Part shown: positions 3,222-64,000 of the stretch, in pieces
Position numbering within the stretch: the first letter of the stretch is position 1
How the letters are laid out: each line of letters opens with the position of its first letter
NCBI GenBank assembly: GCA_002070185.1
Contig: MWCT01000001.1
Location: 267,110-331,109, forward strand
Reading direction: 5' to 3'
From: a candidate division BRC1 bacterium ADurb.Bin183
Lineage (GTDB): Bacteria > Sumerlaeota > Sumerlaeia > MWCT01
DNA: 64,000 nt
Position numbers and translations under genes: made by a program
The notes under the pieces: generated by a model
Told to the model about the DNA's origin: nothing
Databases searched by the model: none
Seen by the model: the letters and a program-made list of their open reading frames with translations, nothing else

Positions 3222-3229
3222 TTAGATTA

Positions 3230-11875: not shown

Positions 11876-11953
11876 TTTTATCCCCTCTCCAAATGTTCGA
11901 TACATTCAAATTCTCGACAAATAGAGAAACCAATTGCAATAAATATTTAGGGA

Positions 11954-44100: not shown

Positions 44101-44574
44101 GCCATTCCCCCATGCCGTTTGCTCCTCCGGCAGAATCTCCGGCAGGATGCCGTATTTGGACGGGCTGAAAAGAGCGGATTGGAATCCCATGAAAAAGAGA
44201 ACAATAATAGCTCCGGAAATATAACCCAGCGCAAACATCGCCATCCCCGCCGCCATCACAATAATTTCCAGAATCTTTGTCCATAGGGTTACGCGGCTTT
44301 TGGCAAAACGATCGGAAAGCCAACCGGCAATGGTTGCGCTTACAATAAAAGGCAGAATAAACGCACCCTCCGCGATGGATGTCCATGTATTTCCCAGCGC
44401 GGTGGCATCTGATGGCGATTGCGGAAACCGCTCGTTGGCGTGTTTCAGAATCAGCATCATCACAATAAATTTGAAAATGTTGTCGCTCAGCGCGCCTTGA
44501 AACATCACGCCAATGAGCGCCCAGAAGGAGCGCAGGCTTCTTGGTTGAGGGAAGGGTTGTTTCGCGTCATTCAT
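41101..44574 (-). CDS. Tripartite fusion: MFS lysophospholipid transporter (LplT-like), 1-acyl-glycerol-3-phosphate acyltransferase-like (PlsC-type) domain and acyl-ACP/acyl-CoA synthetase (AMP-binding) domain; Aas-like
   Basis: Track ORF extends to 44715; probable start is ATG at 44574 (MNDAKQPF). N-terminal ~420 aa is a 12-TM MFS domain; the middle has the acyltransferase NHxxxxD motif (SNHQSYIDALL); the C-terminus has the AMP-binding signature IFSSGSTGAPKGV. Confidence 0.75.
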   Translation of the reverse strand: MNDAKQPFPQPRSLRSFWALIGVMFQGALSDNIFKFIVMMLILKHANERFPQSPSDATALGNTWTSIAEGAFILPFIVSATIAGWLSDRFAKSRVTLWTKILEIIVMAAGMAMFALGYISGAIIVLFFMGFQSALFSPSKYGILPEILPEEQTAWGNGILQGGTFLAIILGTILGPSLFQCFNQSLWINGLILVGLAGGGALLALQMAPTPVGNPAQRFEINPVPMVSLYGREILSNTGILWGVVGMSVWWMAGVMMQGAALLIAVQVLGLSPSQTGLALLPIVVGMGAGCVLAGMVSKNRIELGLVPFGALAMFSASMLVWRLTPNFAELSRMSSEQLQHIRYIVPAMMGLVGLVCGFFIVPLQAFVIQETRPDKRGGVWSVSNVFTSIGMMAGAGARGLIVQATASPGDVFFAGGVLMLLTGIVICVKFPRIPLRFLAVVLFKMIYRVNVKGAENIPAKGGALITSNHQSYIDALLLSVVIERPVRFIMTEDLYRKWFIYPFARITNTIPIKGLGSVRDLIKALREAREEIRQGGLVCIFPEGQMTRLGMMLPFRRGFEHIMRGIQEPIIPAAIDGAYETIFALPGGRRKPIFFNPRAKKPVLCVVFGKPMPADTKHPQLRVAIMDLMVDAFAIRKERALPLHLEAVNTLRNGSFAQYKMLAGTIALGRKLRRKWQDDENIGILLPPSAGAAATNLAATWSGRIPINLNYTAAAAVIEEICANAGIRLIITSRLFMKKIKIALPAKCDIVYLEDIRNEISFWDTSKAFFHIFIRQKTNSFDKLLGRKKSASMDDVATIIFSSGSTGAPKGVELTHWNIWANVASAYHMVDFPPDGCLLGILPFFHSFGNTVALWLPMLTGFRVIYHPNPLHGREIGELVQKHKITHLFATPTILNIYTRRVQPEQFGSLRMALTGAEKLRANVSEAFEKRFGIRPIEGYGATECSPIVCLNTPDFRQPSFYQKGVKYGTVGHPAPGVTVRVVDPETGAPLGVNEPGMLHVRGHNIMHGYYHLPEKTAEVMKDGWYVTGDIAQIDEEGFITITDRLSRFSKIGGEMAPHIRIEETLHNAIGATDMIFAVTGVPDEKKGERLVVLYAAREEKARRAAEEIQNMGLPPLWIPKWSDFFRVEALPILGTGKLDLRAIKAMALSLAGAKK

Positions 44575-44608
44575 TGGCGAAAAATCATGCTGAAACAAAC
44601 CTCGCGGT

Positions 44609-47110
44609 TCAAGGAAATATTTCAATCGCCGCAGTTCCCAGAATGTCGTCGCCGTTGAAGCGGAAGAAAATTTCCGATAGCCCCGTTTTTTCTGGCATGG
44701 CGAGCTCGAAATCAAAAAGGGCGCAGTCGCCCGCCCCCACGGTTCGCTCCAGCGGGATATTATGAAGAATGTTCGTCTGATTGTTCCGGCGAATTTCCAA
44801 AATCAATTTCCGCCCGCTGTCCCATGCATCCCAGCCGTCGTTGCGCACGGCAATCTGAACGCGCCTTATCTCTCCTACCTTTGCCCGCGGCGGCAAGGTA
44901 TCAAAGAGGCAGGAGGCAAACCCCTGATTTTTTCCGCCGAGGCGCAGCCGCGTCAAATAAGAGAACATCGCCGCATCGCAAATAACGTAATTAAGGTCCG
45001 GACGTTCTTCAATCAATCGGCGGTTGAGCGCCTGATAATAGGGGATGTCTTTGAGCACGCTGCGGAAAATAAGAAAGCGTGTTTCTCCCGCCTTTGCCCG
45101 CGCGTGAATTTTTACGGCATCCTTCGCCGTATTGCCGGAAAGGTCTTCGCACATCACATAGACCGGCATATTCTCAACAAGATGAAGCGGGGCATATTCA
45201 AATTCCATCTGCTGCACAACGCCCCCGCGTGAAAAGGGGAGGAACATCCGAACCGAATTTGGCGTGATAGTTCCCGCCCTTCCATTAATCAGAAATCCCG
45301 TAAAGTTGTAACCGAATTTTTGATAATAATATCGGCAATGCGATTGCCAAAGAGCGTCCGCGGCGGGCGCGCCGGAGGGCTCCCTTGGCGGCAGCAGCTG
45401 CGTGACATTCACATACCCCGCGCCGGAGTCGCCGGAAATAAAAACGTCCTGCGCTGTGCGTGTGCGATAGGCATATTCAAAAAACTGCCGCGCACGCTCG
45501 GAAAGATTGGGATTGACCGCCCAAGACATTTTCAGACTGCCGCGTTCGGGGGCGTCCCATCGGCTAAAGAGCGAGTTGACCGTCCACGCCGCCGCATCGT
45601 AATCGCCCACATAATGCAATAGATATGTTTTTGCCGCAGGGGCGCCCTTTTCATCAAGGAGACCTTGCCTCCGCAGCTCCTCCTCCATAGGCGGCAGCGG
45701 CTGCGCGTATCGGCTCGGCAGCGGCAGATGCTGGAAGACGGAGGCATTTGCCAGCGCCGAAAGATGCAGCGCATCGGCGTCAATATAGGCATTATAGGCG
45801 GAAAGAATCCGCACCGTTTCCCACTCCGTCTCCACGCCGCCGCGGCGTCCGCCCGCGCCTTTGGAGTCCGTGTATTTGAATGCCCAAGGCGTGAACCCGC
45901 CCACATGAATAAACGCGCGGTGATTGCTCAGACGGAGCGATTCGGCGAGGATTTCTTGCAGGATTTTGAAATCCGACCCAAGAGGTTGGCAGGGATCATC
46001 AATCGGCGTTTCATCCGCCCAGACGGATAAATCCCAGAAGAAGCCTTTATGCGAAATAAAATAATCATGATTCGTCAGCGTGTGATTTTGAAAATCGTGC
46101 CCCGGCGCCGGATTTTTTATCCAGAAAGAGTCAATATAATAGCCCTGATAAAGCGGATTGCACAAACCCGTTTTGAGATATTTTTCCATCGCCCAAATGT
46201 AGGCGTCGCACTTTTTCGACCCGGTGGAAGTGCGGTTTGTGTCCGGAATCATGCTCCTGCCTGTAAATTTGTTGCAAAGGTCGAGCCGCACGGGCAGGTT
46301 TATTTTGCCGGAAATTAACCGCTGATAGAGCGAATCGGGCGAAGGGTTTTTGGGAATGGGCAAGAGATTTTCCGCGCCCGCCGCTGTGGAGGCAACGTTG
46401 GACGTGGCGGGAACATCCGGATCCCAAAGAACAACGCCGTTTATTTCATCGGCAAAAATTTTCACAAGCGACTCAATATCGCCAACCGGTTTCAATGTTA
46501 TTTTTTCCAGCCAGCAGCCGGGCTCCCGCATGCGGCGCAGCCAGTATTCATCCACATTTTCTTTTGCAAGCTCGCTCTGAACAAAATAAACATAAAGGCG
46601 CGGATGGCGCCGGTTCGCGATTCCTTGCAACGCCGCCGCGAGATGCGCGTGTTCAAAAGCCCGCCACGCAGGCAGGGCGCGCGTGTAGCGCAAATCGTAT
46701 GTGTATAAAACACCGGCGGCTTGTTCGATGGGATGAATCCGAAACGGCGCGCGCCGCGCGCTCCACCCGCTCCAGCCCGCTGCAGAGCGCGCCCTTGCCC
46801 ACGTAAAAAGAGTTGTATGCTCGGGAAATTTTTGAGAGGATGTGAAAAAGAATTTTTCGCTTTGCATCTCGCCGGAGTCCCAGATAATTTCCGATTCCGG
46901 ACTCTCGCCGGATGTGATGCGGAGATGAAAAGCCTCGTGCGACTCGCCGCGCCATTCGATGCGCGGGGGATTGGCTGTCGAGATTCCCGCTGGCAACGCC
47001 ACAATGGGAGGCAGCGGTGGCTGAGCAGCGCAAATGGAATTTTCTGCCATAAAAAATCCTTTTCCAAAAAGTATGAGTAGAATTAGTATATACATATCCG
47101 CGCCTGTCAA
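44609..47110 (-). CDS. Hypothetical secreted protein (833 aa), possibly glycoside-hydrolase-like
   Basis: Long ORF with an N-terminal hydrophobic signal-like segment (MYILILLILFGKGFF). No confident family; the YVGDYDAAAW / GDSGAGYVN segments weakly recall GxGYxYP-type putative glycosidases. Confidence 0.4.
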   Translation of the reverse strand: MTGADMYILILLILFGKGFFMAENSICAAQPPLPPIVALPAGISTANPPRIEWRGESHEAFHLRITSGESPESEIIWDSGEMQSEKFFFTSSQKFPEHTTLFTWARARSAAGWSGWSARRAPFRIHPIEQAAGVLYTYDLRYTRALPAWRAFEHAHLAAALQGIANRRHPRLYVYFVQSELAKENVDEYWLRRMREPGCWLEKITLKPVGDIESLVKIFADEINGVVLWDPDVPATSNVASTAAGAENLLPIPKNPSPDSLYQRLISGKINLPVRLDLCNKFTGRSMIPDTNRTSTGSKKCDAYIWAMEKYLKTGLCNPLYQGYYIDSFWIKNPAPGHDFQNHTLTNHDYFISHKGFFWDLSVWADETPIDDPCQPLGSDFKILQEILAESLRLSNHRAFIHVGGFTPWAFKYTDSKGAGGRRGGVETEWETVRILSAYNAYIDADALHLSALANASVFQHLPLPSRYAQPLPPMEEELRRQGLLDEKGAPAAKTYLLHYVGDYDAAAWTVNSLFSRWDAPERGSLKMSWAVNPNLSERARQFFEYAYRTRTAQDVFISGDSGAGYVNVTQLLPPREPSGAPAADALWQSHCRYYYQKFGYNFTGFLINGRAGTITPNSVRMFLPFSRGGVVQQMEFEYAPLHLVENMPVYVMCEDLSGNTAKDAVKIHARAKAGETRFLIFRSVLKDIPYYQALNRRLIEERPDLNYVICDAAMFSYLTRLRLGGKNQGFASCLFDTLPPRAKVGEIRRVQIAVRNDGWDAWDSGRKLILEIRRNNQTNILHNIPLERTVGAGDCALFDFELAMPEKTGLSEIFFRFNGDDILGTAAIEIFP

Positions 47111-47208: not shown

Positions 47209-47757
47209 ATGCGCAATCCATTTTGTATAAAAATCGTATTTGTTCTCGCTTTATTGATGTTATTCTCTTTTGGTTTTGCACAGACGGAGTCCGATAAACC
47301 AACGCCTAAAATCTTCAGCACATGGAACGGTTTCATGGAGCCCGACCGCTGCGCCTCCGCATGGGCAATCAAAAAATTTGCCGAAAAGGATGCCGTGTTC
47401 AAAATCTACCCTGTGCAAACGACCGCCATGGATGGTGTCTCTTTTGATGTCCCACTGCCCGGCATCTATGCAAGGCAGCGCAATAAAACCATCATGGAGG
47501 CTATCCTTTCCCATCACAAGGTTGAGGACGCCGCCGCATGGCGCGTCGCCTCCATCATCAGGGACATCGAGCTCAATCGTTGGGATAGCCGCGCCACGCC
47601 GGAAGCCGCGGGAGTTGAAGCCGTTATCAATGGGCTGAATAAAATTTCCCGCGATGAAATGGATTGTCTTGAAAAAAGCATGTTAATATTTGATGCCTTA
47701 TACGCCTCATTCCAAAAGGAGGAAAAACCCGTTTCAGCGGAAAAATCCAAACGATGA
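47209..47757 (+). CDS. Small exported protein, possibly chromate-resistance-exported-protein-like (Chrome_Resist family)
   Basis: ATG at 47209 with RBS GAAGGGTG. Signal peptide; the segment WNGFMEPDRCASAWAIKKFAEKDAVFKIYP resembles the conserved core of that family as I recall it. Confidence 0.35.
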   Translation: MRNPFCIKIVFVLALLMLFSFGFAQTESDKPTPKIFSTWNGFMEPDRCASAWAIKKFAEKDAVFKIYPVQTTAMDGVSFDVPLPGIYARQRNKTIMEAILSHHKVEDAAAWRVASIIRDIELNRWDSRATPEAAGVEAVINGLNKISRDEMDCLEKSMLIFDALYASFQKEEKPVSAEKSKR

Positions 47758-48671
47758 AAATAATTTACCGGTTCATACTCCTTTGCCTTTTTGTTATCAT
47801 AGGCAGCCGCATCCAAGCCGATGAGGTCATCCTTTATTCCTCCTTTGAATCGGGCAATTGGGATATTTGGATGATTCACCCCGATAAAAGCAACGCACGA
47901 ATTTTAATCAATTCGCCGCTGGATGAAAAGGCTCCCGCGCTTTCGCCCGACGGCGCATATATCGCCTATCATGATAACAGAGGGAGCGTTCGTATTGCCG
48001 GTCTTGACGGCTCATCGAGCGATGTCCTTGCGCAGTCGCCGGGGCTGAACAGCTATCCCTGTTGGACGCCCGACGGCGCGGGGATTGTGTATTGTTCCCG
48101 CCCATCGCCGACAAAGGAAGCGGCAGGCATTTTTTATAACAAGATTCAGCCGGTCGCCGCCGCAACTCCTATAACGCTGGTTGAGCCGATGGAATCGAAT
48201 AATTTCCCCGCGCTTTCGCCGGACGGCAAGCGCCTTGTTTTTTCGCGTTTTCTGGCGCAGGAAAAACCGCTGAAGCTCCCGCGCGAGCCTCTTATTGAGG
48301 AACTCTACATCCTTGATATAACCAGCGGCAAAATATCGCAGATAACCAACCTGAAAAAAAATAGCGCGCACCCTCGATGGGCGCCCGACGGCGCAAAAAT
48401 AGTTTTCTCATCAAACGCCGCAGGCAGCTATGACCTGTGGCTTGTTGATATTGGAGAAAAAATATCGGAGCCGCGGCGGCTTACTGAGGATCCGGGATTT
48501 GAAGGCTTTCCCGCATGGTCACCCGACGGGGAGAAAATCGTCTTTATCTCGTCGCGCACTGGAAATATGGAACTGTGGATTCTGGATGTTTCAAGCGGAG
48601 GCTGGACGCAGCTCACTAATTCGGAAAAGAAAAGAGATTCGATGGAGCCCTGCTGGGGCAGGCTCCCTTAA
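47754..48671 (+). CDS. TolB-like WD40 (PD40) beta-propeller protein, secreted
   Basis: Start overlaps the upstream stop (ATGA). Repeated PD40 blades: ALSPDGAYIAY, PCWTPDGAGIVYCS, PALSPDGKRLVFSR, PRWAPDGAKIVFSS, PAWSPDGEKIVFISSR. Confidence 0.7.
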   Translation: MKIIYRFILLCLFVIIGSRIQADEVILYSSFESGNWDIWMIHPDKSNARILINSPLDEKAPALSPDGAYIAYHDNRGSVRIAGLDGSSSDVLAQSPGLNSYPCWTPDGAGIVYCSRPSPTKEAAGIFYNKIQPVAAATPITLVEPMESNNFPALSPDGKRLVFSRFLAQEKPLKLPREPLIEELYILDITSGKISQITNLKKNSAHPRWAPDGAKIVFSSNAAGSYDLWLVDIGEKISEPRRLTEDPGFEGFPAWSPDGEKIVFISSRTGNMELWILDVSSGGWTQLTNSEKKRDSMEPCWGRLP

Positions 48672-48695: not shown

Positions 48696-49865
48696 ATGAG
48701 GCGGCAAATTATTATTTTTACTCTCATTTTCGCCGCTGCGCTTTTGCAGACGGCGGGCGCTTTGGCGCAAATCGAAGCGGAGCCATCGGGATTTTTATCG
48801 AATGTTCAAGTTAGCTCCGATGAACTAAACATCGCCGCAAATGAAAAAACTCGCATCGAATTCAGATTAACACAATCCGCCAAAGTCACGCTCGTGATTT
48901 ACAACGCCGGACATGTTCCTGTTCGGACGCTGGCAACAGACCTGCCATGCGCGGCGGGAGTGAATGCGCTCGAATGGAACGGACGCGATGACGCCGGCGC
49001 GCCGGTTCCCGATGAGGCGTATTATTTTACCATCTCTGCGGTGGGCTCTCGGCAGCAGGTCGCCTCATTTGATCCCGCGCTCACATCCGGCGGCGAACGC
49101 ATCAAGTTCGGCGACGACAACCTGAAGTTTGACGCCGAGGCAGGCGGGATTGTTTATGAGCTCCCGTATGCCGCGCGAGTTCAAATCCGCATCGGCGTTA
49201 CAAACGGTCCTCTTTTGAAAACCCTTGTGCAATGGGCGCCAAGAAAAAAGGGGCGCCATTGCGAGCCGTGGGATCGCAAAGACGCCAGCGGTAGTATCAC
49301 GTTGACTGAGTTGAAAAATTTACGCATTCTGGGACGCGCCATGGCGCTGCCCGAAAAAAGCATCATCGTCAAAGGCGGCGGCGCGGCAAGCGCATCAACC
49401 GAACCCGTTACGCAGGACACGGCATTGCGCAGAACCGCCGTGGATGCCTCTCTGGCAAAAAGGGCGCGCCCCATCGAACCCGCCGCATGGACGCCTTTCG
49501 GCAAAAACACAGACCCTGTTTTTTCGCTCTCGCTGAAATCGGATAAGAACGCCGTTGATACTAAATCCGCGCCCCCATCATCCGAAAAAGGCGTCGCCGT
49601 TCGCGGAGAAACGGCATTCGAAATCGCCCTTGATGACGCCGCGCGCATGGCTCTTATGGAGCAGCGCTTTGAGATAGTATTTTTCGTTGATTATTCCCTT
49701 ATAGGAGAAGTGGAGCAGGGCTACTCGCCCTATACTTGGGTTTGGGACTCGACATCTGTTGCGGATGGACAGCATGTGATAACATTCAACGTTTCCGGTA
49801 TGAACGATCAGATAGGCGCCCAGTCTCTGATTGTTGATGTGCAAAACGGCATCGCTGAAAAGTGA
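48696..49865 (+). CDS. Secreted protein with FlgD-Ig-like beta-sandwich domain(s)
   Basis: Signal peptide; VTLVIYNAGHVPVRTLA...LEWNGRDDAGAPVPDEAYYFTISA resembles the FlgD immunoglobulin-like domain pattern. Confidence 0.4.
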   Translation: MRRQIIIFTLIFAAALLQTAGALAQIEAEPSGFLSNVQVSSDELNIAANEKTRIEFRLTQSAKVTLVIYNAGHVPVRTLATDLPCAAGVNALEWNGRDDAGAPVPDEAYYFTISAVGSRQQVASFDPALTSGGERIKFGDDNLKFDAEAGGIVYELPYAARVQIRIGVTNGPLLKTLVQWAPRKKGRHCEPWDRKDASGSITLTELKNLRILGRAMALPEKSIIVKGGGAASASTEPVTQDTALRRTAVDASLAKRARPIEPAAWTPFGKNTDPVFSLSLKSDKNAVDTKSAPPSSEKGVAVRGETAFEIALDDAARMALMEQRFEIVFFVDYSLIGEVEQGYSPYTWVWDSTSVADGQHVITFNVSGMNDQIGAQSLIVDVQNGIAEK

Positions 49866-53132: not shown

Positions 53133-56100
53133 ATGAAAACCAAGTTGTTCCTTTCTGTGTATATGCTTTTTTTCTGCGCTTTGTTCCTGTCGGTTTATGC
53201 GCTGCCGCCGGATATAGACCAAACCGACCGCGTGGACGGCAAGGATTTAATCCGCTTTTCCCGCGCATGGCAGAAAAAAACGGGCGAGGAGGGATGGAAC
53301 GAGCGCGCCGACCTTGATTATTCGGGGCTTATTGACGAGGAGGATTATAAAATTCTCCAGCTTTATTTCGGATTGCAGGGGCGCGTCCGCCGTGTCTGGA
53401 TTTCGCAGGGAACGCCCAACACCATCATGCGTTTTGCCGATGATGGCGAACTCATCGGCAGTTTTAGCGGCGCGGGCAATCCCCGTTTGTTCGCCCTGTT
53501 CCCGGGCGACGGTTCCCTCTGGTCTCTCAATACATCGCAGGGCAAATTGTTTCATTATGATAGCAACGGACGGCTTCTTTCCACCGTGAGCGGCTTCAAT
53601 ACTCCAGCGGCGCTTTCCGTGAATGAAAAAACCGGACAGTGCTGGGTTGCCAACACTGTCAGAAAAAATGTCGTCCTTATTTCGCCGGATGTCCCCGCTG
53701 ACTATAATATCGCTTCGCAAACAGGATTTCATAAAACCATCGGCGGCTTCAATGAGCCCGTCTCCGTTTCTGTGGATTCGACGGACGGTTCCTGCTGGGT
53801 TGCCGACGCCAAAGTAAGCCAAATCATCAAACTGGACGCAAACGGAGATAAAGAGCTTTTGCGGATTGGCGGCTTTCCCAACGCCAGCCTTGTCATCGTA
53901 AATCCCGTTGACGGCGCCGTCTGGGTTGAAACAAATGATTACTTCATTAGACAAACCGTCAAATGTCTTACCAGCGGCGTCAGAATAAAAGCATTCGATT
54001 CAGGGGCGCTTCTTTGCGTCAGCCGCAATGATGGCTCCGTTCTTGTTCAAGGAACAACGTATAGCGAGGTCTGCCGCATCAGCGCAAATGGCGAAGAGAT
54101 TTTCCGCGTTGGAGGCTTCGGCTGGATTATAGCTGCCTTTGCCGATCCGGTCAGCGGCTGCTTCTGGCTGCTGGATCAAGAAAAAAATGAAGTGGTGAAA
54201 CTCTCCGCAGGCGGGGCGACGCTCCTGCGTATAGGCGGCGTTTTTGGGCAGCTTTCATCTGGCGCGATAGATGACGGCGAACCGACTTTTTCATCCTATC
54301 CCCGCGCCGCTGTTCAGGCGTCGCCGCTAAAAGGCGGCGTCCCTCTCAAAGTCTTTTTTGCCGCTCAAATAGAAAATGCGGGCGGCGCGATTTTAAATTA
54401 TCAGTGGGATTTTGACGGCGACGGTCTCTTTGACTGGATGTCTCAGACAACCGGCGATGTTAGCCACACATATGAAACACCGGGCATCTATAATCCCATT
54501 TTCCGCGCGGTGAATGAAAAGGGGCTCGCGGCGGTCAACACGTCCCTCCTCATAACAGCGGGGGAGCCGGAGATTCGCCTGGACGCAAGCCCCGCAAGCG
54601 GCGCGGCGCCTCTAAAGATCGCATTGAATACAATTCTGCTGAACATTCCCAGAACTGCTGTTCATGCCATTTTGTATGATTTGGATGGCGACGGCAATTT
54701 TGATGCGCTTTACGAAGGCAAAGATATATTGAAAGGCTTAAGTGTTTCTCACACATACCGCAAAATTGGCGACTTCTATCCGATGGCTAAAGTTGTCTTG
54801 CAGGAGGGCGGCGAGGTTTGCGCGTCCGCAACCGTGGAGGTTCATTCTCCCGCCCCAACCGTCAAGGCATCCGCCAAACCCGCGCAGGGCTACATGCCGC
54901 TTTCTGTGGAGCTTTCCGCGCAGGCAAAAGATGATGACGGCAGCGTTGTTTTATATGAATGGGATTTTGATAATGACGGCATATTCGACTGGCGCAGCAC
55001 AACGCAATCCAACGTCTTGAATGTGTATCGCCAAAAAGGCAATTTCACGGCATTGGTGCGCGTGACTGATAATGACGGCTTACAGGCGTCCGACGTTGTC
55101 CCGATTCGGGTCTTAAACAAACCGCCGGATGTGACGGCGGATGCCGAACCGCGCAAGGGAAACGTCCCGCTGTTGGTCAATCTCAAGGGACAGGCGACCG
55201 ATGCCGATGGGAGCGTTGTCCTGTATGAATGGTCGCCGAAGGGCGACGGCAATTTCATCTGGCAATCCCCCTCCGCCGGTCTGACCTCATATACCTATAC
55301 TGAGCCGGGGATTTATCATGCAACCTTTCGCGCCACAGATGACGAAGGCTCCAGCGCCACAAAAACCGTTGCCATTGAAGTGCGGAATGCGGGCAAGCCT
55401 TTTGCTTTGCCGGATGCCGCGCCCCGCAGCGGCGCCGCCCCGCTCAATGTCAATTTCACCGCCGCCGGTTCCGATGACGATGGCTCGATTGTCCTTTATG
55501 AATGGTTTTTTGAACTGCCCTACGAGCGCCTTGACCAGTTGTGGAAACGCCCCCTTGCCGATGATTATTCCTCGCCGGATTCTTATTGCGGCATCGCCTA
55601 CAACAAAGCGACCGGACATCTCATCTTTGCCTCTAACGGGGGCAAAAATTTTCCCGCTGGATTTTACATCATTGACCCGGCAACCGGTCGGACCATCGGC
55701 AAACTTTCGGAAAACGGTGTCTCATTTATGTCATTATCCTCTGCGCCGAGACGCAAGGCAATAGGCATTGCGCCCAGCGGGAAGATTTTCCATCAGGACG
55801 GCAACGGCGATATTGTGATGTGGGCGAACGAGGGCGCCAAGCCTGTCGTTGTTTATGACGACACGGAAAATGATGAATTCTCGCACACCATTGATGTTAT
55901 CGAACCGGCGGGCGTCGTGTATGTTTATACCTGCCGGTATGCGACGAAAGAGATAAAGATTTTTCGGCTCGATGGCGCGCTTCTTACGCATGTGAATACC
56001 GTTTCATGCAGCCCCGCCGGAAACACCGTCGGCACCGGCATCGCAGTTTCCGCCGATGGAAAGACTTTATACACCTCGTATAAATCTCTTGTTCTTTCGA

Positions 56101-59100
56101 AATGGGTCAGCCCGACCGGACCTTTGGGAACTTACACCCGCGACGCAACTTTTGCCCCGACTCAAACCGCGCCGGAATCCATCGCGCTGGGTTATGCGGA
56201 GTCTTTTCCGGAAAAGCCGACCGCGCTTCTTGGAACTCTGCATGATTCCCCGGCTGATAAGATATTCTTCTTTGATGCCGCCGGCGTAGAGTCGAGAAGT
56301 CCCGCCTTGATTGAAGGCGCGGGTTACCGTTCTTACGCATCGGATATTGATGTGGATTGGGAGAATCGCCGTATTTTTTACGGTTTTGGTGTGAACGGAA
56401 TCGGCTGCATTCATTTTTCGCCCGGCGCTTACTGGTCGTCTCCAACCCCCGGCACAATCGCGCACCAATATAACGTCTGGGGCGTTTATCATCCCATGCT
56501 CCGCGTGAGGGATAATTCCGGCTTCACGGACGAAACCGCTCTGGAGATTAACGTTCTTTCCCCTCCGTCTGCGAAAATTATTTTCCCTGAAAATAATGTG
56601 ATATCTTATCGCAACAACCTCATATTCCGCGGTTCGGGCGAGGACAAGGACGGACAGATTGTCAAATATGAATGGGACTTTGACGGCGACGGGACTTGGG
56701 ACTGGGCATCGGATAAAGAGGAGAATGCGACGTGGGCGGATGCCGATTTTGCCGAACACAACGCCTTTTTTCGCGTGACCGATTCGGACGGGCTGCAGGA
56801 TACTGTCTCGACTCATTACAAGATTGTTTCCAGCGCGCCAAAAGTTGCCGCTCAGGCGGAGCCCGCCCGAGGCAACGTCCCTGTAACCGTCACGTTCAAT
56901 GGAACCGCAACAGACGCCGATGGATGGATTCTTGATTATATGTGGGACTTTGATGGCGACGGGATTTTTGACTGGTTCAATGGAGAGCCGCGCGGCGCGG
57001 TGATTGCATGCACAAGCGAATCGCCCAATTCAAAGGCGGATAAGCTCATTGACGGCAGCCTTGCCACCAACAACTATTGGTTGAGCGCCGCTAACCCCGC
57101 CTTTCCCATTGATATCACCTTCAAACTCAAAGGCGACACCAGCCAGCAGATAGACCGAATCATACTCAGCACGAAAAACCCCATATCCGCCAACTATCGA
57201 GTAAAGGACTTTGAAGCGCATATAACCGATGAGGAAACCGCTGAAAATTTCGTCCCTTGGATTCGCGGAACAATGAACAGCGTTGCAGAAGAACAGACCT
57301 TTACATCTATCACATTAAGCGCAAAATATGTCAAACTGCGCATCCTTTCCGTCGAGAAAGGAACATCTTATGCGTCGCTGGGCGAATTTGAGGTTTATGC
57401 AGGCAAGAGAAATGTTCTCACCAATCCGGGCGCAAAAGCGACTTACATTTTCAATACACCCGGAATATACAATGCCGAACTTCGCGTCATTGATAACGAC
57501 GGTTTCGCCGGCAGCGATGTGATTCCTATCCAAGTCAATGCCAGCAATTCCCCAGCGGCGTCCATTATCGCCATGGAGCCTTCGCCGGGATGGCGAACCG
57601 AACCCATCCTTTTCATGGGTATCGGCGAGGACGCCAACGGTCAGGTGGTTAAATATGAATGGGATTTGGAGGGCGACGGGACTTACGATTTGGAGCAGAC
57701 CAAATCCGGCAGCGTTGTTTCATGGACAAGCCAATATAACACCACCACCTACGCCGCGAAAAATATTATTGACGGTCTGGCGGAGAATAGCAAGGGCTGG
57801 CGTTCCAACAGCGTCAACTTCCCGCAGGAACTTGTCATGCAGCTTGCCGATGCCGAAGGGGGCTCGCCGGTCAATCTGGCGTGTGTCGCCATCAATGTTG
57901 CGATAGGAAATCCCAATAACAATTGCGCAAAGGATTTCACTGTTTCCGTTTCCTCAACCGCCGCCGACTCCGGCTTTTCAGATGTCGGTTCATTTCAGGC
58001 GATGCGGAGCAAGGGATATCAGATTTTCACTTTTGCGCCCGCGCCGGCTCGCTGGCTGAAAATCTCCGTCACATCAAATTACGGCGGCGGATTCGTGGAG
58101 ATTGCTGAAATCTGCGCAGCGGGCAAGCCGCCTGCGCGCAACCAGCTCGCGCCCGGCGGCGCCTTTGCCCAGTATAATTTCAGCGGAAATTACAAGCCGA
58201 CCTTTCGCGTTACAGATAATGATGGTTTGATGGATTGGGCATCGCAAAAACTCGTCATCAATTCCGAGTCGCAAAAACTCGGCAGCGTCTGGGTGGCGGT
58301 TACAGGGGCGCATACGGTGAAACGGCTATCGCCTATGGGCGATGAACTCTGGTCGTTTGAATCGCTCCGTTTTCCATGGTCTGTCGCCGCCAATGTCAAC
58401 ACAAAGGATTGCTGGATTGCCAATACGCAGGGGCATAATGTTGTTAAACTCGATCCGCAGGGGGCGGAGAAGCTCCGCATTGCCGGATACAACAACCTTA
58501 AAAAAGTCGAGGTGAATCCGGTGAACGGCGTCTGCTGGGTCAGCGACACTTCCAATCATCAAGTGGTGCGATTGAGCGCGGATGGGACTCAGGAGGCGCG
58601 CATCAGCGGGTTTAGCGGTCCCACCGGGCTATCGGTATATCAGGCGGATGGCTCCTGTTGGGTGGCGGATGTGTATAATAATGGGCGCGTTGTCAAACTT
58701 GCGGCGAACACCCCTGATGGGTATGATATCAGCACGCAGACGGGTTTTCATATTTTCCGCACGGGATTCAGGGAGCCGCAAGCCCTCGCGGTCAATCAGA
58801 TGGATGGAACGTGTGTTGTGGCGGATAATAAGAACAATCAGGTCGTCCTTTTAAATGAGGAGGCAAGTGAGGAAATATGGCGCATCAGCGGCATCGGCAG
58901 CCCCATCGGCATCAGCGTCAATCCCCGAGATGGCAATATCTGGGTTGCCGACCAGTCAAGCCACCGCGTTGTGCGGCTTGCTCCCGACGGAAATGAAGTG
59001 TTTCGCGTCAGCGGTTTTAATCATCCAGGCGCTATCAGCGTTAATAACCTTGATGGAACATGCTGGGTGGCGGACACGGATAACAATCGGGTGGTAAAAC

Positions 59101-62100
59101 TTGCGCCTAATGGAAATATCATTTTGACCCAAACCGGAAACACCCAGCCGCGCGGCATTTATGTGGATTCAGGCGAGGGGGCGTTCAACCCCGCGCCGAC
59201 ATTCAAGGCAATTGCCGGAGCCTCCGCGCTGGAAGGAGCCGTGCCTCTTGTCGTCTCGTTCACCGCCGCATCGCAGGGCGGCGGAAATATCATACGTTAC
59301 GAGTGGGATTTTGAAGGCGACGGCGTTTTCGATTACAGCTCCCCAGCCACCGGCGATGTGGAACATGTGTATGAAGATTTCGGCATCTTCAATGCTGTGT
59401 TGAGAATAACCGATGAAAATCATCAGGTGGCTTATGATTATCACTTGATTCTCAAAGCACAGGGCATAAGGGCGACCGCAATCGCCATCCCCACTGAGGG
59501 TTTTGCTCCCCTGAGCGTGGTTTTTTCCCATGCGGGATTTTCGCAAAACCCAATAACAAAATATGAATGGGATTTCAACGGCGATGGAAAAATTGACAGA
59601 CAGACATCCGATGCCGCCGCCAAACTTACATATACCTATAATCGGGCGGGGACATGGACGGCGTTTCTGACTGTGACAGACTCAGCTGGCAAAACCGCCC
59701 AAACTGCCGTTGTGTTGAACATCGCTCCAAACCCGCCTGACGTGCACAATGCGTTGGTGTCAACGCGAATCGTTTTGGGACGGACGCTTGTCAGTTTTGA
59801 CGCCACAAGGGCGTTTGACTATGATGGCAGCATTGTCCTTTATGAATGGGACTATGACGGCGACGGCATTTATGATTGGCATTCAAAAACGCCTCTTATT
59901 GCGGAATATGTTTATCCCGCGCCCGGAATATACCGCCCCATATTCCGCGCCACAGATAATGACGGGTTGTCTTCAACTAAACAATTTGAATTAACCATTC
60001 CTAATTCCGCGCCAGTTGCTAAAGCCAATGCAGAGCCAGCCATCGGACGCGCCCCGCTCACCGTTCAATTCTCCGGCGATTGCGCCGATTATGATGGCAG
60101 CATCGCCCTTTATGAATGGGATTTCAACGGCGACGAGATTTACGATTGGTCGTCCAATCTGACGGCGACAGTCAGCCATTCCTACAACACGCCGGCGGAA
60201 TACACGGCAACGCTTCGCGTCACGGATAATCTGGGCGCGACCGCAACCAGCAGCGTTCCCATTTCTGTCAAGAATACAAACGACCCCATTGTGGCGCTCA
60301 ACGGCGCGCCGCTGGAAGGCGTCTTTCCGCTGCTTGTGAATTTTAACGCCGTTCCCCAAAACCCCGCAAATCCCATCGTGCGCTATGAATGGGATTTCGG
60401 CGAGGCAAAATGGACAGAGGCGGACGGCTATTTGCGACAGATGCTCTGGCTCGGCGCGTTCAAGGCAACAGGCGGCAATGATGTGACAAGCCACATGCCT
60501 GATATTGAAAAAGGCAACCCCTCTGATAAAGACACCTTTGCCGGTCGTGTCTGGTCGAAAACAAATTCATCCTCAAGCGGCATTTTCAATCTTGTGCCAA
60601 AATTCGGCGGCAAAAAGAATTTCGCTTATAGTCTTGTTTATCTTTACTCGAAAGAGGCGCAGCGCGTCCGATTTAGTTACGGCGCCAAAGACTCTGCTCG
60701 ATTCTGGATTAATGAAAGCCTTGTGGAAACAAGGGTTTTTTCCGGCTCATTTGCCTTTGACCAATTTCAGTTTGAGGCGGACCTAAAGGCGGGATGGAAC
60801 AAGGTTCTTGTTGCTGTTTCCCATGAAACGAGTTCATGGGCATTCGCCTGTCGAATCACCGACCTTGCCAACGCGCCGATTCGTTTTTTGCATTCCGTTG
60901 TGGAGCCTTATTCGGCTTCGCCCTTTGTGCAAAACGGCGCCGCCACCGCCTCGTTTGGTTATCGGCATCCGGGGGTGTATAATGTCAAAGTAACAGCTTA
61001 TGATTCTGCGGCAAAGCAGGCTTCCGCTGAACTGTCTGTCAGGGTTTTGAATAACCCCATACCGGTTGCCCTGCCAAGGGTGCATCCCCTGAGCGGACCT
61101 GCCCCTCTTTCGTGCCGATTCGAAACAAATGCAAAGGTTTCGACGGGTGTGATTTACTATTATACATGGGATCTTGGGGACGGTCGAACTTTTGACGACT
61201 GCGGCAATATTCCGCGAAATTTCAGCCATACGTATTATTTCCCCGGAGTTTATCGCGCGACGCTTTTTGTTAAGGATGACGCCGGTATAATCGGGCAGGG
61301 CAGCGTTGATATCACCGTTTTTGATGCCGAAAAAATCACTGCAGAAATAGAGGCGTCGCCTATTTCCGGCAAAGCGCCGCTCGACGTTCAATTCATCGGG
61401 CGAGTCAAAAGCATTTCTGGCATGGTTCGGCTCTTTGAATGGGATTTCAATGGCGATGGTATTTATGACCTTAACGGACCTGACGCCGCTGAACCGCTAT
61501 TCAAATTCACAACACCCGGACAATACACCGTGAAACTGCGCGTTACGGACGACCGCGGCAATAAAGCAACCGCGGAAAAGACGATTTATGCGGGCGTGTC
61601 CGCCGGACCTCAAATTCAAATCACGGCGAATCCCGAAAGCGGCGCCGCCTCGTGTATAATCGCATTTGAGGCGGATGTGAAACCGGGCGATAATTCAGAT
61701 ATTAACATCGAATGGGATTTTGACGGAAATGGAACTTATGATGAAATTACCTCGCTTGGAGCGGACGGAAAATCCGCAACTTCCCATATCTACACGCTGC
61801 CCGGGTTGTATAATGTCCGGGCTCGCGCCAAAGACGGACTGGGGCGCATCGGCGAAACCGCCCTTTCGCTGCCCATCGCCTTTTCTATCAACGCATGGCG
61901 CAGCGCCGAGGTTTTGTCCCCGCTTCTCAATCAGACTATGAGCGTGCAGTCTGTCATCGGCTCGCCTGCGCGGATAACGGTCTGGATTGAAAATGCAAAA
62001 GGCGAGGTTGTGAAATATCTGGCGCAGGATGCAGATCGCGCCGCCGGATACTACTCCGATGTCTGGGACGGATGCGACAGCGGCGGGAATTATGCGCCTC

Positions 62101-62831
62101 ATGGGACGTATTATTTTTATCTGCGTTATTCCGCGGGCGATATAACGGGGCTCATTGACCACGAAAAACCCATGACTCCGATAAAAGGTTATGAGTATGG
62201 CGACAACCCCACATTCACCTATCCCTCGCGCTTCCATGCTCTTGAAGACCGCCCCTTCTATCTTTCATACACCATGAATGAGTTTTCCGATGTGTTCTCC
62301 TTTATCAGCGATGTAGGCGCACGCAATCCCATTGACCCGTGGGTTGCGCCGCTTTCCATAAAGGAGGCGCGCCCTGCCGGTAATTATATTGATATCTGGG
62401 ACGGCACAAACGGACGAAAAAGATTCATTCCGACCCTATCTGAAGCAGCCGTTATCGGCGTCTGGTCATGGAAGCTTCCGGATAATGCCGTCCTTCTTTC
62501 GATGCGCCCGCAAATCTCCGGCGTCACCAAAGACCCCGATTATCTTTACCCTCTGCCCAGCCCCTATAAAGATACGGATGGATTGACCATACAATATACA
62601 ATCTCGTGCCCTGCGTATGTCCAGATTGATATCGAGTCGGATGACGGCGCGCTTGTGAAACGCATAGAGCAGACGCACGATACCGCCGGAGCAAAAAGCG
62701 CATTTTGGGACGGGTTTAATACAGATGGGACGCCGCCATTGCCCGGTGTCTATAAAATTCATTTATCAGCGCTCGATAGCTACGGCAATGAGTCGCTGCA
62801 TGTTTATGATCTCTTCAGGATTCAGTATTAG
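53133..62831 (+). CDS. Giant secreted multidomain surface protein (3232 aa): dockerin-like N-terminus, NHL-type beta-propellers, ~13 PKD domains, two discoidin (F5/8 type C)-like domains, a lectin-like domain and C-terminal FlgD-Ig-like domains
   Basis: ATG at 53133 with GAGGGGA RBS and signal peptide MKTKLFLSVYMLFFCALFLSVYA. Ca-binding-loop-like DIDQTDRVDGKD...DLDYSGLIDEEDY; NHL blades (DGSCWVAD..N.VVKL); recurrent YEWDFDGDG PKD cores; KLIDGSLATNNYW and NIIDGLAENSKGWRS discoidin-type starts. Confidence 0.8.
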   Translation: MKTKLFLSVYMLFFCALFLSVYALPPDIDQTDRVDGKDLIRFSRAWQKKTGEEGWNERADLDYSGLIDEEDYKILQLYFGLQGRVRRVWISQGTPNTIMRFADDGELIGSFSGAGNPRLFALFPGDGSLWSLNTSQGKLFHYDSNGRLLSTVSGFNTPAALSVNEKTGQCWVANTVRKNVVLISPDVPADYNIASQTGFHKTIGGFNEPVSVSVDSTDGSCWVADAKVSQIIKLDANGDKELLRIGGFPNASLVIVNPVDGAVWVETNDYFIRQTVKCLTSGVRIKAFDSGALLCVSRNDGSVLVQGTTYSEVCRISANGEEIFRVGGFGWIIAAFADPVSGCFWLLDQEKNEVVKLSAGGATLLRIGGVFGQLSSGAIDDGEPTFSSYPRAAVQASPLKGGVPLKVFFAAQIENAGGAILNYQWDFDGDGLFDWMSQTTGDVSHTYETPGIYNPIFRAVNEKGLAAVNTSLLITAGEPEIRLDASPASGAAPLKIALNTILLNIPRTAVHAILYDLDGDGNFDALYEGKDILKGLSVSHTYRKIGDFYPMAKVVLQEGGEVCASATVEVHSPAPTVKASAKPAQGYMPLSVELSAQAKDDDGSVVLYEWDFDNDGIFDWRSTTQSNVLNVYRQKGNFTALVRVTDNDGLQASDVVPIRVLNKPPDVTADAEPRKGNVPLLVNLKGQATDADGSVVLYEWSPKGDGNFIWQSPSAGLTSYTYTEPGIYHATFRATDDEGSSATKTVAIEVRNAGKPFALPDAAPRSGAAPLNVNFTAAGSDDDGSIVLYEWFFELPYERLDQLWKRPLADDYSSPDSYCGIAYNKATGHLIFASNGGKNFPAGFYIIDPATGRTIGKLSENGVSFMSLSSAPRRKAIGIAPSGKIFHQDGNGDIVMWANEGAKPVVVYDDTENDEFSHTIDVIEPAGVVYVYTCRYATKEIKIFRLDGALLTHVNTVSCSPAGNTVGTGIAVSADGKTLYTSYKSLVLSKWVSPTGPLGTYTRDATFAPTQTAPESIALGYAESFPEKPTALLGTLHDSPADKIFFFDAAGVESRSPALIEGAGYRSYASDIDVDWENRRIFYGFGVNGIGCIHFSPGAYWSSPTPGTIAHQYNVWGVYHPMLRVRDNSGFTDETALEINVLSPPSAKIIFPENNVISYRNNLIFRGSGEDKDGQIVKYEWDFDGDGTWDWASDKEENATWADADFAEHNAFFRVTDSDGLQDTVSTHYKIVSSAPKVAAQAEPARGNVPVTVTFNGTATDADGWILDYMWDFDGDGIFDWFNGEPRGAVIACTSESPNSKADKLIDGSLATNNYWLSAANPAFPIDITFKLKGDTSQQIDRIILSTKNPISANYRVKDFEAHITDEETAENFVPWIRGTMNSVAEEQTFTSITLSAKYVKLRILSVEKGTSYASLGEFEVYAGKRNVLTNPGAKATYIFNTPGIYNAELRVIDNDGFAGSDVIPIQVNASNSPAASIIAMEPSPGWRTEPILFMGIGEDANGQVVKYEWDLEGDGTYDLEQTKSGSVVSWTSQYNTTTYAAKNIIDGLAENSKGWRSNSVNFPQELVMQLADAEGGSPVNLACVAINVAIGNPNNNCAKDFTVSVSSTAADSGFSDVGSFQAMRSKGYQIFTFAPAPARWLKISVTSNYGGGFVEIAEICAAGKPPARNQLAPGGAFAQYNFSGNYKPTFRVTDNDGLMDWASQKLVINSESQKLGSVWVAVTGAHTVKRLSPMGDELWSFESLRFPWSVAANVNTKDCWIANTQGHNVVKLDPQGAEKLRIAGYNNLKKVEVNPVNGVCWVSDTSNHQVVRLSADGTQEARISGFSGPTGLSVYQADGSCWVADVYNNGRVVKLAANTPDGYDISTQTGFHIFRTGFREPQALAVNQMDGTCVVADNKNNQVVLLNEEASEEIWRISGIGSPIGISVNPRDGNIWVADQSSHRVVRLAPDGNEVFRVSGFNHPGAISVNNLDGTCWVADTDNNRVVKLAPNGNIILTQTGNTQPRGIYVDSGEGAFNPAPTFKAIAGASALEGAVPLVVSFTAASQGGGNIIRYEWDFEGDGVFDYSSPATGDVEHVYEDFGIFNAVLRITDENHQVAYDYHLILKAQGIRATAIAIPTEGFAPLSVVFSHAGFSQNPITKYEWDFNGDGKIDRQTSDAAAKLTYTYNRAGTWTAFLTVTDSAGKTAQTAVVLNIAPNPPDVHNALVSTRIVLGRTLVSFDATRAFDYDGSIVLYEWDYDGDGIYDWHSKTPLIAEYVYPAPGIYRPIFRATDNDGLSSTKQFELTIPNSAPVAKANAEPAIGRAPLTVQFSGDCADYDGSIALYEWDFNGDEIYDWSSNLTATVSHSYNTPAEYTATLRVTDNLGATATSSVPISVKNTNDPIVALNGAPLEGVFPLLVNFNAVPQNPANPIVRYEWDFGEAKWTEADGYLRQMLWLGAFKATGGNDVTSHMPDIEKGNPSDKDTFAGRVWSKTNSSSSGIFNLVPKFGGKKNFAYSLVYLYSKEAQRVRFSYGAKDSARFWINESLVETRVFSGSFAFDQFQFEADLKAGWNKVLVAVSHETSSWAFACRITDLANAPIRFLHSVVEPYSASPFVQNGAATASFGYRHPGVYNVKVTAYDSAAKQASAELSVRVLNNPIPVALPRVHPLSGPAPLSCRFETNAKVSTGVIYYYTWDLGDGRTFDDCGNIPRNFSHTYYFPGVYRATLFVKDDAGIIGQGSVDITVFDAEKITAEIEASPISGKAPLDVQFIGRVKSISGMVRLFEWDFNGDGIYDLNGPDAAEPLFKFTTPGQYTVKLRVTDDRGNKATAEKTIYAGVSAGPQIQITANPESGAASCIIAFEADVKPGDNSDINIEWDFDGNGTYDEITSLGADGKSATSHIYTLPGLYNVRARAKDGLGRIGETALSLPIAFSINAWRSAEVLSPLLNQTMSVQSVIGSPARITVWIENAKGEVVKYLAQDADRAAGYYSDVWDGCDSGGNYAPHGTYYFYLRYSAGDITGLIDHEKPMTPIKGYEYGDNPTFTYPSRFHALEDRPFYLSYTMNEFSDVFSFISDVGARNPIDPWVAPLSIKEARPAGNYIDIWDGTNGRKRFIPTLSEAAVIGVWSWKLPDNAVLLSMRPQISGVTKDPDYLYPLPSPYKDTDGLTIQYTISCPAYVQIDIESDDGALVKRIEQTHDTAGAKSAFWDGFNTDGTPPLPGVYKIHLSALDSYGNESLHVYDLFRIQY

Positions 62832-62858: not shown

Positions 62859-64000
62859 ATGATTCGTTGGAGTTTTTATCAAGCGCTATGTGCGGCGATG
62901 GCGGTCTTGTTGTTGCTTGCCATCGCGCCGCGCGCATTTTCCGTGGACCATCCGTGGGACACTTGGCATGTCTATTTCCCGAGCGTACCGGATATTCCCG
63001 AGCCGGATAACGACAGGGATGATGACAAGCAAGAGGATGCCGACCCTATTCTTTCGGCGGAGGGCAATTATGTTTATCCCCACACAGATTTGTGGATAAA
63101 AGGACGCAATCCCGCGCTCAAAATTCGCCGTGTCTATGACTCTATGTATGCCTGGTATTTGGGACCCTTTGGCTATGGATGGAGTTTTATCTACGACATC
63201 ACATTCACCAAAGTTTACCGACCTATGATGGCGGGCGGCGGCAGAGCGGCAGAGGAGTCGGATAAACAGCCGGATACAAAAACAGCCTCTTTCTGGGGCG
63301 GGCTGGGCGGTGTCATCATACGTATGCCGGAGGGCAAATCTATCTTTTTCAAATGGAATGGCGGCGTCTTCGAACCTCCTGCGGGCTCCAAATACACCCT
63401 CGACAACGAACTGGTTCTTAAACACAAGGATGGAATTTATTACAAATTTCAGGGCAGCGATGATGTTCGCAAGGTCAGCTTCATCGGCAACGCCTATGGC
63501 GAGGCTTTGACGCTCACCTATGACAACAGCGGAAAACTGATAAAAGTTGCCGACCGTTTCAACCGCTTTATCAACATCTCCTATAATCTGAATAATAAAA
63601 TTTCCTCCGTCACGGATTTCACCGGACGCTCCTGCTCTTATGACTATGATGATGAGGGCAACCTTATCGCCTACACCAATCCCTGCGGCTATAAAACGTT
63701 CTATGCCTATAACGCCGAGCATAGAATAATCAGCGTCTCCAACCAATCCGGACAGGTCTGGCTCTCCAATACATACAATCAGTGGGGCAAGGTCATCCAG
63801 CAAATCCACCTCGGCGGTGTTTACACCTTTGAATATGATACCATGAACAAACGGACAACCGTCACGTATCCCAACGGCGGACAGTGGATAAAAAAATGGG
63901 ATGATTCCCGGCGCAATGTGGAAAGCACAGACCCGTATGGTTTCAAGACAATTCGGGAGTGGGATGATTTTTCCAATGCCGCAATTATCACAAATAAAAG
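62859..64000 (+). CDS. RHS/YD-repeat protein, 5' part (runs off the window end)
   Basis: Not in the supplied track because it has no stop in the window. ATG at 62859 follows AAAGGAGG. Hand translation gives MIRWSFYQALCAAMAVLLLLAIAPRAFS then YD-repeat units (YDYDDEGNLIAYTNPCGYKTFYAYNAEHRIISV, YTFEYDTMNKRTTVTYPNGG), open to nt 64000. Confidence 0.65.
   Translation, partial: MIRWSFYQALCAAMAVLLLLAIAPRAFSVDHPWDTWHVYFPSVPDIPEPDNDRDDDKQEDADPILSAEGNYVYPHTDLWIKGRNPALKIRRVYDSMYAWYLGPFGYGWSFIYDITFTKVYRPMMAGGGRAAEESDKQPDTKTASFWGGLGGVIIRMPEGKSIFFKWNGGVFEPPAGSKYTLDNELVLKHKDGIYYKFQGSDDVRKVSFIGNAYGEALTLTYDNSGKLIKVADRFNRFINISYNLNNKISSVTDFTGRSCSYDYDDEGNLIAYTNPCGYKTFYAYNAEHRIISVSNQSGQVWLSNTYNQWGKVIQQIHLGGVYTFEYDTMNKRTTVTYPNGGQWIKKWDDSRRNVESTDPYGFKTIREWDDFSNAAIITNK

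Follow-up and report, generated by a model that had tools for sequence, protein, structure and literature searches.

A giant PKD-domain protein with nested inserts, a predicted dockerin and an adjacent Rhs gene in an uncultured Sumerlaeota lineage

In bacterial teneurin-like toxins, a single Sec-dependent chain combines PKD/Ig adhesion domains and NHL with a YD shell and a toxin (bioRxiv 10.1101/2025.11.11.687626). Neighboring giant Ig proteins joined by a cohesin-dockerin pair have been described in a bacterial cell-cell interaction, namely, Cag_2037/Cag_2038 of Chlorobium chlorochromatii (bioRxiv 10.64898/2026.03.19.712371). Domain nesting occurs in ~20% of multidomain proteins (PMC13114784, a study whose main text is silent on PKD, immunoglobulin, propeller and galactose-binding domains). 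Little is understood of how Rhs/YD toxins are delivered without a type VI secretion system (T6SS) or a Tc-type injector, and Sumerlaeota are an uncultured phylum with nearly no functional data; the Sumerlaeota papers that we consulted, PMC8092238 among them, make no mention of PKD, dockerin, cohesin or Rhs. Here we analyze 64,000 nucleotides (nt) of contig MWCT01000001.1 (positions 267,110 to 331,109, forward strand; assembly GCA_002070185.1), hereafter the window, from ADurb.Bin183, a Sumerlaeota metagenome-assembled genome (MAG) from an anaerobic digester (PMC8092238). The subject is a 9.7-kb gene for a protein of 3232 amino acids (aa), the giant protein, together with the Rhs gene that follows it.

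PKD-rich surface proteins are a known class, and the giant protein taken alone is one more member of it. New here are the nested-domain architecture, the predicted dockerin-cohesin pair and the invariably adjacent Rhs gene. The reading that we favor, with confidence that stands at about the midpoint, is that the giant protein is a cohesin-docked adhesion or targeting arm working with an Rhs toxin, a role that we infer from gene order only.

Nested domains in a single intact reading frame

The coding sequence runs from an ATG at 53133, preceded by the ribosome-binding site (RBS) gaggggag, to a stop codon ending at 62831 on the plus strand, with 3232 codons and zero internal stops (p ~1e-67 for a stop-free run of this length by chance), so that the single uninterrupted open reading frame (ORF) of a preliminary description of the window is borne out. 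The mature protein has a mass of 348.5 kDa and a pI of 4.8, and residues 1 to 26 are its only hydrophobic stretch, in keeping with the earlier view that it is secreted. Profiles from Pfam and NCBIfam recovered the PKD, NHL and discoidin content already noticed, with PKD_4 or PKD in 10 to 11 stretches (PKD_4, PF18911, 380.8 bits over 11 stretches; PKD, PF00801, 324.3 bits), NHL/Vgb_lyase, F5/8 type C, Sad1_UNC and two FlgD_ig matches, and no catalytic domain was matched by either collection. From this domain content and the export signal, the giant protein is predicted to be an extracellular binding protein, all-beta and modular, and glycan or cell-surface binding would be the natural reading of its PKD/NHL/discoidin set.

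How many PKD domains does the protein contain? A hidden Markov model (HMM) was built from the 12 contiguous units, and extra domains were sought as complementary half-matches. Four such pairs were found, for PKD5, PKD7, PKD8 and PKD13, with the extents listed in Table 1 except that the first half-match of PKD8 begins at residue 1491 (1491-1534/1680-1711). With the insert removed, each stitched pair gave one continuous PKD_4 match of 31.1 to 46.9 bits against a cut-off of 27. Because all four pass this gathering score, the protein has 16 PKD domains, 12 of them contiguous and 4 split by nested inserts; the earlier count of about 13 captured a PKD-rich protein but not the number. All four nested domains enter the same PKD loop, straight after the WDFDGDG motif.

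The nested domains differ in kind. Both NHL propellers reported before are present, but a third six-bladed propeller nested in PKD5 (insert 1) had gone uncounted. Propeller 2 matches NHL (PF01436) at 71.6 bits over 4 stretches and Vgb_lyase at 64.8 bits, and with repeat matches above the cut-off and a six-bladed fold it falls within the NHL six-bladed propellers. The discoidin-like domains of the preliminary description correspond to one clear F5/8 type C domain, insert 2 (PF00754, 37.7 bits; cut-off, 28.2), and one paralogous discoidin-like domain, insert 3, which passes Sad1_UNC alone (23.8 versus 22 bits); the two match each other across orthologues at E values of 1e-11 to 1e-13. Insert 4 had been called lectin-like, an assignment that found no family match: four orthologues have no Pfam match, no PDB match was obtained by sequence or profile, and hhalign against the GH2_N-containing protein of the window gave no assignment. 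At the level of a guess, insert 4 may be a PA14 or GH2_N-like jelly roll. This insert is nevertheless conserved, with 39 to 79% identity between orthologues; a single-sequence AlphaFold2 model of PKD13 with insert 4 had a predicted local distance difference test score (pLDDT) of 33.6 and was unusable.

At the DNA level, a PKD core string had been reported to recur, and all 11 listed positions were recovered to within a few bases. The string tatgaatgggattttga is found 12 times at up to 3 mismatches, compared to 0.36 expected, and 12 was reached in no shuffle; the core string of the preliminary description, also given as TATGAATGGGATTTTGA, likewise has 12 occurrences at up to 3 mismatches. This recurrence is explained by the conserved codons of YEWDFDGDG. 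The proposal that the gene is recombination prone and easily collapsed in assembly does not hold, since the PKD units are divergent, the longest exact direct repeat within the gene is 23 nt, and six full-length variants have equal size. The 12 contiguous units share 12 to 46% protein identity (median, 28%) and 33 to 54% DNA identity, a repeat finder returned only families of 21 to 87 nt at 60 to 85% identity, and Tandem Repeats Finder detected no tandem array in the gene.

Six distinct variants of the giant protein, each exactly 3232 aa long and at least 99.7% identical, were recovered from at least 33 contigs of different origin. An identical protein is encoded on contig JAKJGI010000001.1 (GCA_022704465.1, 297.7 kb), and a 906-kb metagenome contig has a further identical copy. 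The ratio of nonsynonymous to synonymous substitution rates (dN/dS) against the 80%-identical orthologue P0023 (locus L083) is 0.16 overall and 0.12 to 0.27 across 12 domain blocks; selection along the entire chain is uniformly purifying. The equal protein length across variants and contigs together with these ratios indicates that the gene is real, intact and constrained over its full length. Among the six population variants, the variable residues 911, 944, 988, 1018 and 1077 (window positions ~55863-56363) sit in insert 1, which makes up 9.5% of the protein yet holds 5 of its 8 to 9 variable residues; this cluster could be a single recombination tract or local diversification.

Public entries of the protein (OQB23079.1/HRR98918.1) have generic names. 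Its 90% cluster unites records of "candidate division BRC1 bacterium ADurb.Bin183" with Candidatus Sumerlaeota/Sumerlaeia MAGs under the name "PKD domain-containing protein" and, once, "Serine/threonine-protein kinase PknD." No kinase domain was matched in the giant protein by Pfam or NCBIfam, and the PknD label looks like a misnaming derived from the NHL propeller. As to the source lineage, the threonyl-tRNA synthetase of the window (282-2219) reached a best identity of 60% (matches, 50 to 60%) in a pattern scan of 185,579 species genomes; the matches belong to mixed phyla, and the lineage is thinly represented in that collection.

A HMMER search of 1.84 billion representative proteins with insert 1 as the query returned 24 matches, 5 of which are giant proteins or pieces of them. 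P0023 (3230 aa) is ~80% identical to the giant protein and collinear with it domain by domain, and P0025 (3226 aa) is a further orthologue. P0026 (3430 aa), P0024 (2891 aa, N terminus cut at the contig end) and P0028 (1052 aa, N-terminal part only; locus L084, 5073-8231) all carry an extra, weakly Reelin-subrepeat-B-like insert in PKD4, and P0024 is without the PKD8 insert. The order of dockerin, nested inserts and C-terminal region is common to the family, also where insert 1 is 34 to 38% identical. Since the inserts differ among orthologues, the PKD loop has repeatedly gained or lost domains.

The remaining matches are shorter proteins in which insert-1-like domains often stand in tandem, the named ones being from KSB1 and Gracilimonas, and several of them (e.g., P0030) bear sorting domains of the type IX secretion system (T9SS); P0027, P0045 and P0046 are repeat-driven chance matches. 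A scan of genome contigs with insert 1 found no relative, and a metagenome scan with an insert 4 profile found the identical copy only. P0028 breaks off within insert 1, after ~1020 aa, and has a divergent tail; the genes around it also differ, a DDE transposase being among them. This member may represent either a disrupted copy or a chimeric contig.

A predicted dockerin, a cohesin-like protein and a conserved Rhs neighbor

Directly after its signal peptide, the giant protein carries a putative dockerin (residues 24 to 88). As a single sequence, this segment matches Pfam Dockerin_1 (PF00404) at 15.3 bits (E value, 0.023), below the cut-off of 22.9. A profile of five orthologous modules has 2y3n_B as its best PDB match, with an E value of 3.9e-7, and another 13 chains of dockerins match at E values of <0.01, both Ca-loop repeats being spanned. 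The dockerin prediction is thus well supported.

A candidate partner is encoded in the same cluster, a secreted 181-aa protein for which a three-sequence profile (the window protein and two homologues) matched the cohesins 1tyj_A and 2y3n_A in PDB at an E value of 0.005, the next match being at 0.68. The best dockerin match and one of the cohesin matches come from the same PDB entry, 2y3n. Pfam gave no match for the window protein, and its homologue in locus L082 has a faint match to Cohesin (PF00963) in the same region, under the cut-off (E value, 0.086). We regard the identification of the 181-aa protein as a probable cohesin as moderately supported. Each locus has exactly one dockerin of the giant-protein type and one cohesin-like ORF; we read the two as a putative dedicated cohesin-dockerin pair and infer that they bind each other. 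A cellulosome was considered and rejected, with one cohesin and one dockerin per locus and a giant protein that has no catalytic domain.

On the other side, the Rhs gene starts 27 nt after the stop codon of the giant gene. Its product has a signal peptide, DUF6531, RHS repeats (245.9 bits) and an Rhs_assc_core match at residues 1036 to 1118 (68.1 bits; cut-off, 32.5). Variants of 1244 and 1257 aa differ in the choice of start codon, and their payload is identical. A variable C-terminal payload is a hallmark of polymorphic toxins, and here the payload is Peptidase_M91 in loci L082 and L085 and unrelated in the window. By repeats, core and variable payload, the downstream gene is predicted to encode an Rhs polymorphic toxin. 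The payload of the window protein (residues 1119 to 1257) is first acidic and then Cys rich, followed by a glycine-rich hydrophobic segment, AADFAAGGVVGVIGGCAAGAAIPGL, and has no Pfam match; it may be a membrane-active toxin. Lipoprotein-like genes stand directly after the M91-type Rhs genes of L082 (13950-14660, 236 aa) and L085 (12482-13096, 204 aa); these are candidate immunity proteins and have no homologue at that position in the window.

An Rhs gene lies directly 3' of the giant gene in all five loci with a visible downstream region, i.e., the window, L083, L082, L085 and L086, the last of these with a 60-aa N-terminal fragment. Four further genes, for a ChrB_C protein, a PD40 propeller, a 389-aa FlgD_ig protein and the cohesin-like protein, are conserved at 30 to 49% identity between loci. 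The first three are 42 to 49% identical in the distant L082, where the gene order is permuted. In the window and L083, these companions precede the giant gene, and in L082 they lie 3' of Rhs; in L085, ChrB_C follows Rhs before the contig ends. Only in the window and L083 do genes for an ATP-binding cassette (ABC) binding protein and permease stand directly 5' of the giant gene, and this limited occurrence suggests that they are probably outside the unit.

Table 1. Features of the giant gene and of its conserved neighbors in the window
Feature	Coordinates (nt)	Strand	Residues	Remarks
ChrB_C protein	47335-47757	+		Conserved companion
TolB-like PD40 propeller	47754-48671	+		Conserved companion
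389-aa FlgD_ig protein	48696-49865	+		Conserved companion
Cohesin-like protein, secreted, 181 aa	49875..50420	+		Three genes upstream of giant gene; profile versus PDB
Signal peptide, Sec type	53133..53201	+	1-23	MKTKLFLSVYMLFFCALFLSVYA; cleavage site read from sequence
Dockerin (predicted)	53202..53396	+	24-88	Two Ca-loop-like repeats, DIDQTDRVDGKD and DLDYSGLIDEED
Beta-propeller 1	53397..54302	+	89-390	NHL/Vgb_lyase-like; paralogue of propeller 2
PKD1-4, contiguous	54306..55391	+	392-753	
PKD5, split	55407..56561	+	759-793 + 1101-1143	Encloses insert 1
Insert 1	55512-56432	+	794-1100	Third six-bladed NHL-type propeller; distant DUF4623-type relative
PKD6, contiguous	56574..56837	+	1148-1235	
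PKD7, split	56841..57545	+	1237-1283 + 1431-1471	Encloses insert 2
Insert 2	56982-57422	+	1284-1430	F5/8 type C discoidin, Pfam
PKD8, split	57564..58265	+	1478-1534 + 1680-1711	Encloses insert 3
Insert 3	57735-58169	+	1535-1679	Discoidin-like; paralogue of insert 2; Pfam Sad1/UNC match
Beta-propeller 2	58266..59204	+	1712-2024	NHL repeats
PKD9-12, contiguous	59205..60281	+	2025-2383	
PKD13, split	60297..61055	+	2389-2424 + 2601-2641	Encloses insert 4
Insert 4	60405-60932	+	2425-2600	176 aa; conserved domain, no family match
PKD14-16, contiguous	61068..61880	+	2646-2916	
C-terminal region	61881..62828	+	2917-3232	FlgD_ig at 2938-3001 and ~3160-3221, possible third between
Rhs/YD toxin gene (predicted), 1257 aa	62859..64000, past window edge to ~66632 (L001 19727-23500)	+		RBS aaaggagg

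Several other genes of the window were noted alongside. A 307-aa ORF on the minus strand (62886-63809) lies wholly within the Rhs gene and has no family match; most likely it is not a gene but a shadow ORF. At 41101-44715 (minus strand), a 1204-aa fusion of a major facilitator superfamily transporter, an acyltransferase and an AMP-binding enzyme resembles the LplT-Aas lysophospholipid recycling fusion. Other large, probably secreted proteins are a 956-aa beta-helix/Chlamydia-PMP-repeat protein (9035-11905, minus strand), a 1057-aa S8 subtilase (37876-41049, plus strand) and a metallophosphoesterase fused to a PQQ-type propeller (34458-36638, plus strand); neither the dockerin nor the C-terminal domain of the giant protein is present on these three.

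Possible roles of the giant protein

Its dockerin, C-terminal FlgD_ig domains, cohesin pair and Rhs neighbor were missed by the preliminary description, and with the predicted dockerin-cohesin pair and the conserved Rhs neighbor, the most likely function changes from the one read there. The conservation of the cluster suggests that the giant protein cooperates with the Rhs toxin and the cohesin-like protein. Once exported, the giant protein would bind the cohesin-like protein of the cluster through its N-terminal dockerin and thereby be held in a surface assembly. The PKD stalk would display the propellers and lectin-like inserts outward, where they could bind glycans or proteins of another cell or particle, and such an adhesion arm might position or target the presumably co-transcribed Rhs toxin. 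Giant protein and Rhs protein together would then be similar to a bacterial teneurin-like protein split over two genes, with adhesion domains, NHL, YD shell and toxin.

Several points weigh against this adhesion arm. The cohesin call rests on a three-sequence profile at an E value of 0.005, with the Pfam Cohesin cut-off not reached, and no membrane or wall anchor is recognizable in the 181-aa protein, so that a tether to the cell is at most putative. Rhs has no candidate immunity gene after it in the window genome, where the next gene is a convergent GGDEF/EAL gene. A promoter scan did no better than shuffles, and a terminator scan gave nothing decisive at the gene junctions. The conserved adjacency shows a functional link but not its kind, and the synteny sample is small, at five lineages.

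What else could such a protein do? It is possible, though clearly less probable than the adhesion arm, that it is a noncatalytic scaffold that catches polysaccharides or particles as food (chitin, extracellular polymer or glycans), with the Rhs gene an incidental neighbor, in which case it would be one more large PKD surface protein of modest importance. Its discoidin modules, the glycan-active neighbors and the chitinases of the lineage make this scaffold plausible: F5/8 type C is a classic carbohydrate-binding module, dockerins and cohesins are cellulosome parts, and the window also encodes a GxGYxYP putative glycosidase and an SASA esterase with a GH2 sugar-binding domain. Two chitinase types are reported for the ADurb.Bin183 lineage (PMC8092238). 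The ABC binding protein and permease genes directly 5' of the giant gene would fit nutrient capture as well, but they are confined to the window and L083, and L086 has a minus-strand gene upstream, whereas Rhs is kept in 5 of 5 loci; for this comparison, the upstream sequence is missing in L082 and L085. Moreover, the giant protein is without a catalytic domain, and since the window has a single cohesin and no second dockerin by family profile, there is no multienzyme assembly.

A more ambitious version of the toxin link, which we hold to be doubtful, is that an undescribed contact-dependent toxin apparatus with Sec export and no T6SS is built from the giant protein, the cohesin-like protein and the Rhs cocoon, to which the PD40 and FlgD_ig proteins may be added. 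The stalk of this split teneurin-like system would recognize the target cell and present or release the YD-shell toxin, and the PKD insert loop would be a swap site for target-recognition modules.

A structural role of the giant protein in the envelope, the matrix or cell-cell cohesion, as an S-layer-like protein or biofilm adhesin not specifically linked to toxin delivery, is unlikely. Its very large size, acidity, all-beta makeup and wealth of Ig-like domains are shared by many surface-layer and matrix proteins, and it has FlgD_ig domains in common with the 389-aa companion. However, Pfam and NCBIfam matched no SLH, S-layer or known anchor module, and with 5 lineages among 1.84 billion representatives the family is so rare that an accessory trait is a better fit than a core part of the envelope; such a role would also leave the conservation of the Rhs neighbor unexplained.

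Cargo of T9SS, with the last FlgD_ig-like domain as the C-terminal sorting signal, is a very improbable reading. In its favor, FlgD_ig is cross-matched by T9SS type A C-terminal domains, P0030 has matches to Por_Secre_tail as well as FlgD_ig, some T9SS cargo proteins contain distant homologues of insert 1, and there is a weak CHU_C match (E value, 0.00035). However, that match falls in the first FlgD_ig, ~230 aa from the C terminus, and the giant protein is matched by neither Por_Secre_tail (PF18962) nor TIGR04183; its C-terminal domain is found on no other secreted protein of the window, and no T9SS gene is among the window proteins scanned. An assembly artefact (collapsed or chimeric repeats) or decaying pseudogene is next to impossible: short motif strings do repeat in the DNA, but the same length recurs in at least 33 contigs and six variants, with an identical copy on a 906-kb contig, a collinear 3230-aa orthologue, a dN/dS of 0.16 and no exact repeat beyond 23 nt.

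Comparison with described systems

The cluster pairs a Sec-exported Rhs cocoon with a giant array bearing a predicted dockerin and a one-module putative cohesin, and the adhesion-arm model can be tested module by module. ChrB_C, PD40 and the 389-aa FlgD_ig protein are companions kept even where the giant protein is 34 to 38% identical in insert 1. Independently of function, the locus is a clear natural case of repeated nesting at one PKD loop, useful for protein engineering and domain annotation, where standard annotation tools give half-domains and one public record says "PknD kinase."

Like PKD-rich bacterial and archaeal surface proteins (PF00801/PF18911), the giant protein has tandem PKD domains, the WDFGDG motif and a presumed extracellular stalk or array; it differs from them in that a single loop position holds a nested domain in 4 of its 16 PKD domains and in that orthologues gain and lose inserts there. 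With adhesins of the type I secretion system (T1SS)/RTX class (LapA, SiiE, MpIBP), it shares very large size, mostly Ig-like repeats and ligand-binding modules, but it has a Sec signal in place of the C-terminal signal of T1SS, no RTX matches and repeats that are 12 to 46% identical, not near identical. Assignments to RTX adhesins, T9SS cargo and cellulosomes were all rejected on the features that define membership in these classes.

The resemblance to Cag_2037/Cag_2038 would lie in clustered genes for a cohesin and a dockerin, both predicted here, and in very large Ig-domain proteins, outside Clostridia and Bacteroidia and in a context of cell-cell contact, not cellulose breakdown. In that pair, the dockerin is C-terminal and the cohesin is borne by a T1SS/RTX protein that also has an enzyme domain, whereas here the putative dockerin is N-terminal after a Sec signal and the cohesin-like protein is a minimal 181-aa module.

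Compared to bacterial teneurin-like proteins (teneurin structures, PMC5851990), RHS/YD repeats and the TTR, FN-plug and TIP domains are all absent from the giant ORF, which is therefore not a single-chain teneurin-like protein, and no immunity gene follows the Rhs gene of the window. The adhesion and NHL domains and the YD shell are on two polypeptides here, with three propellers, 16 PKD domains and a predicted dockerin-cohesin pair. The bacterial teneurin-like protein is the closest described analogue of the giant-Rhs cluster.

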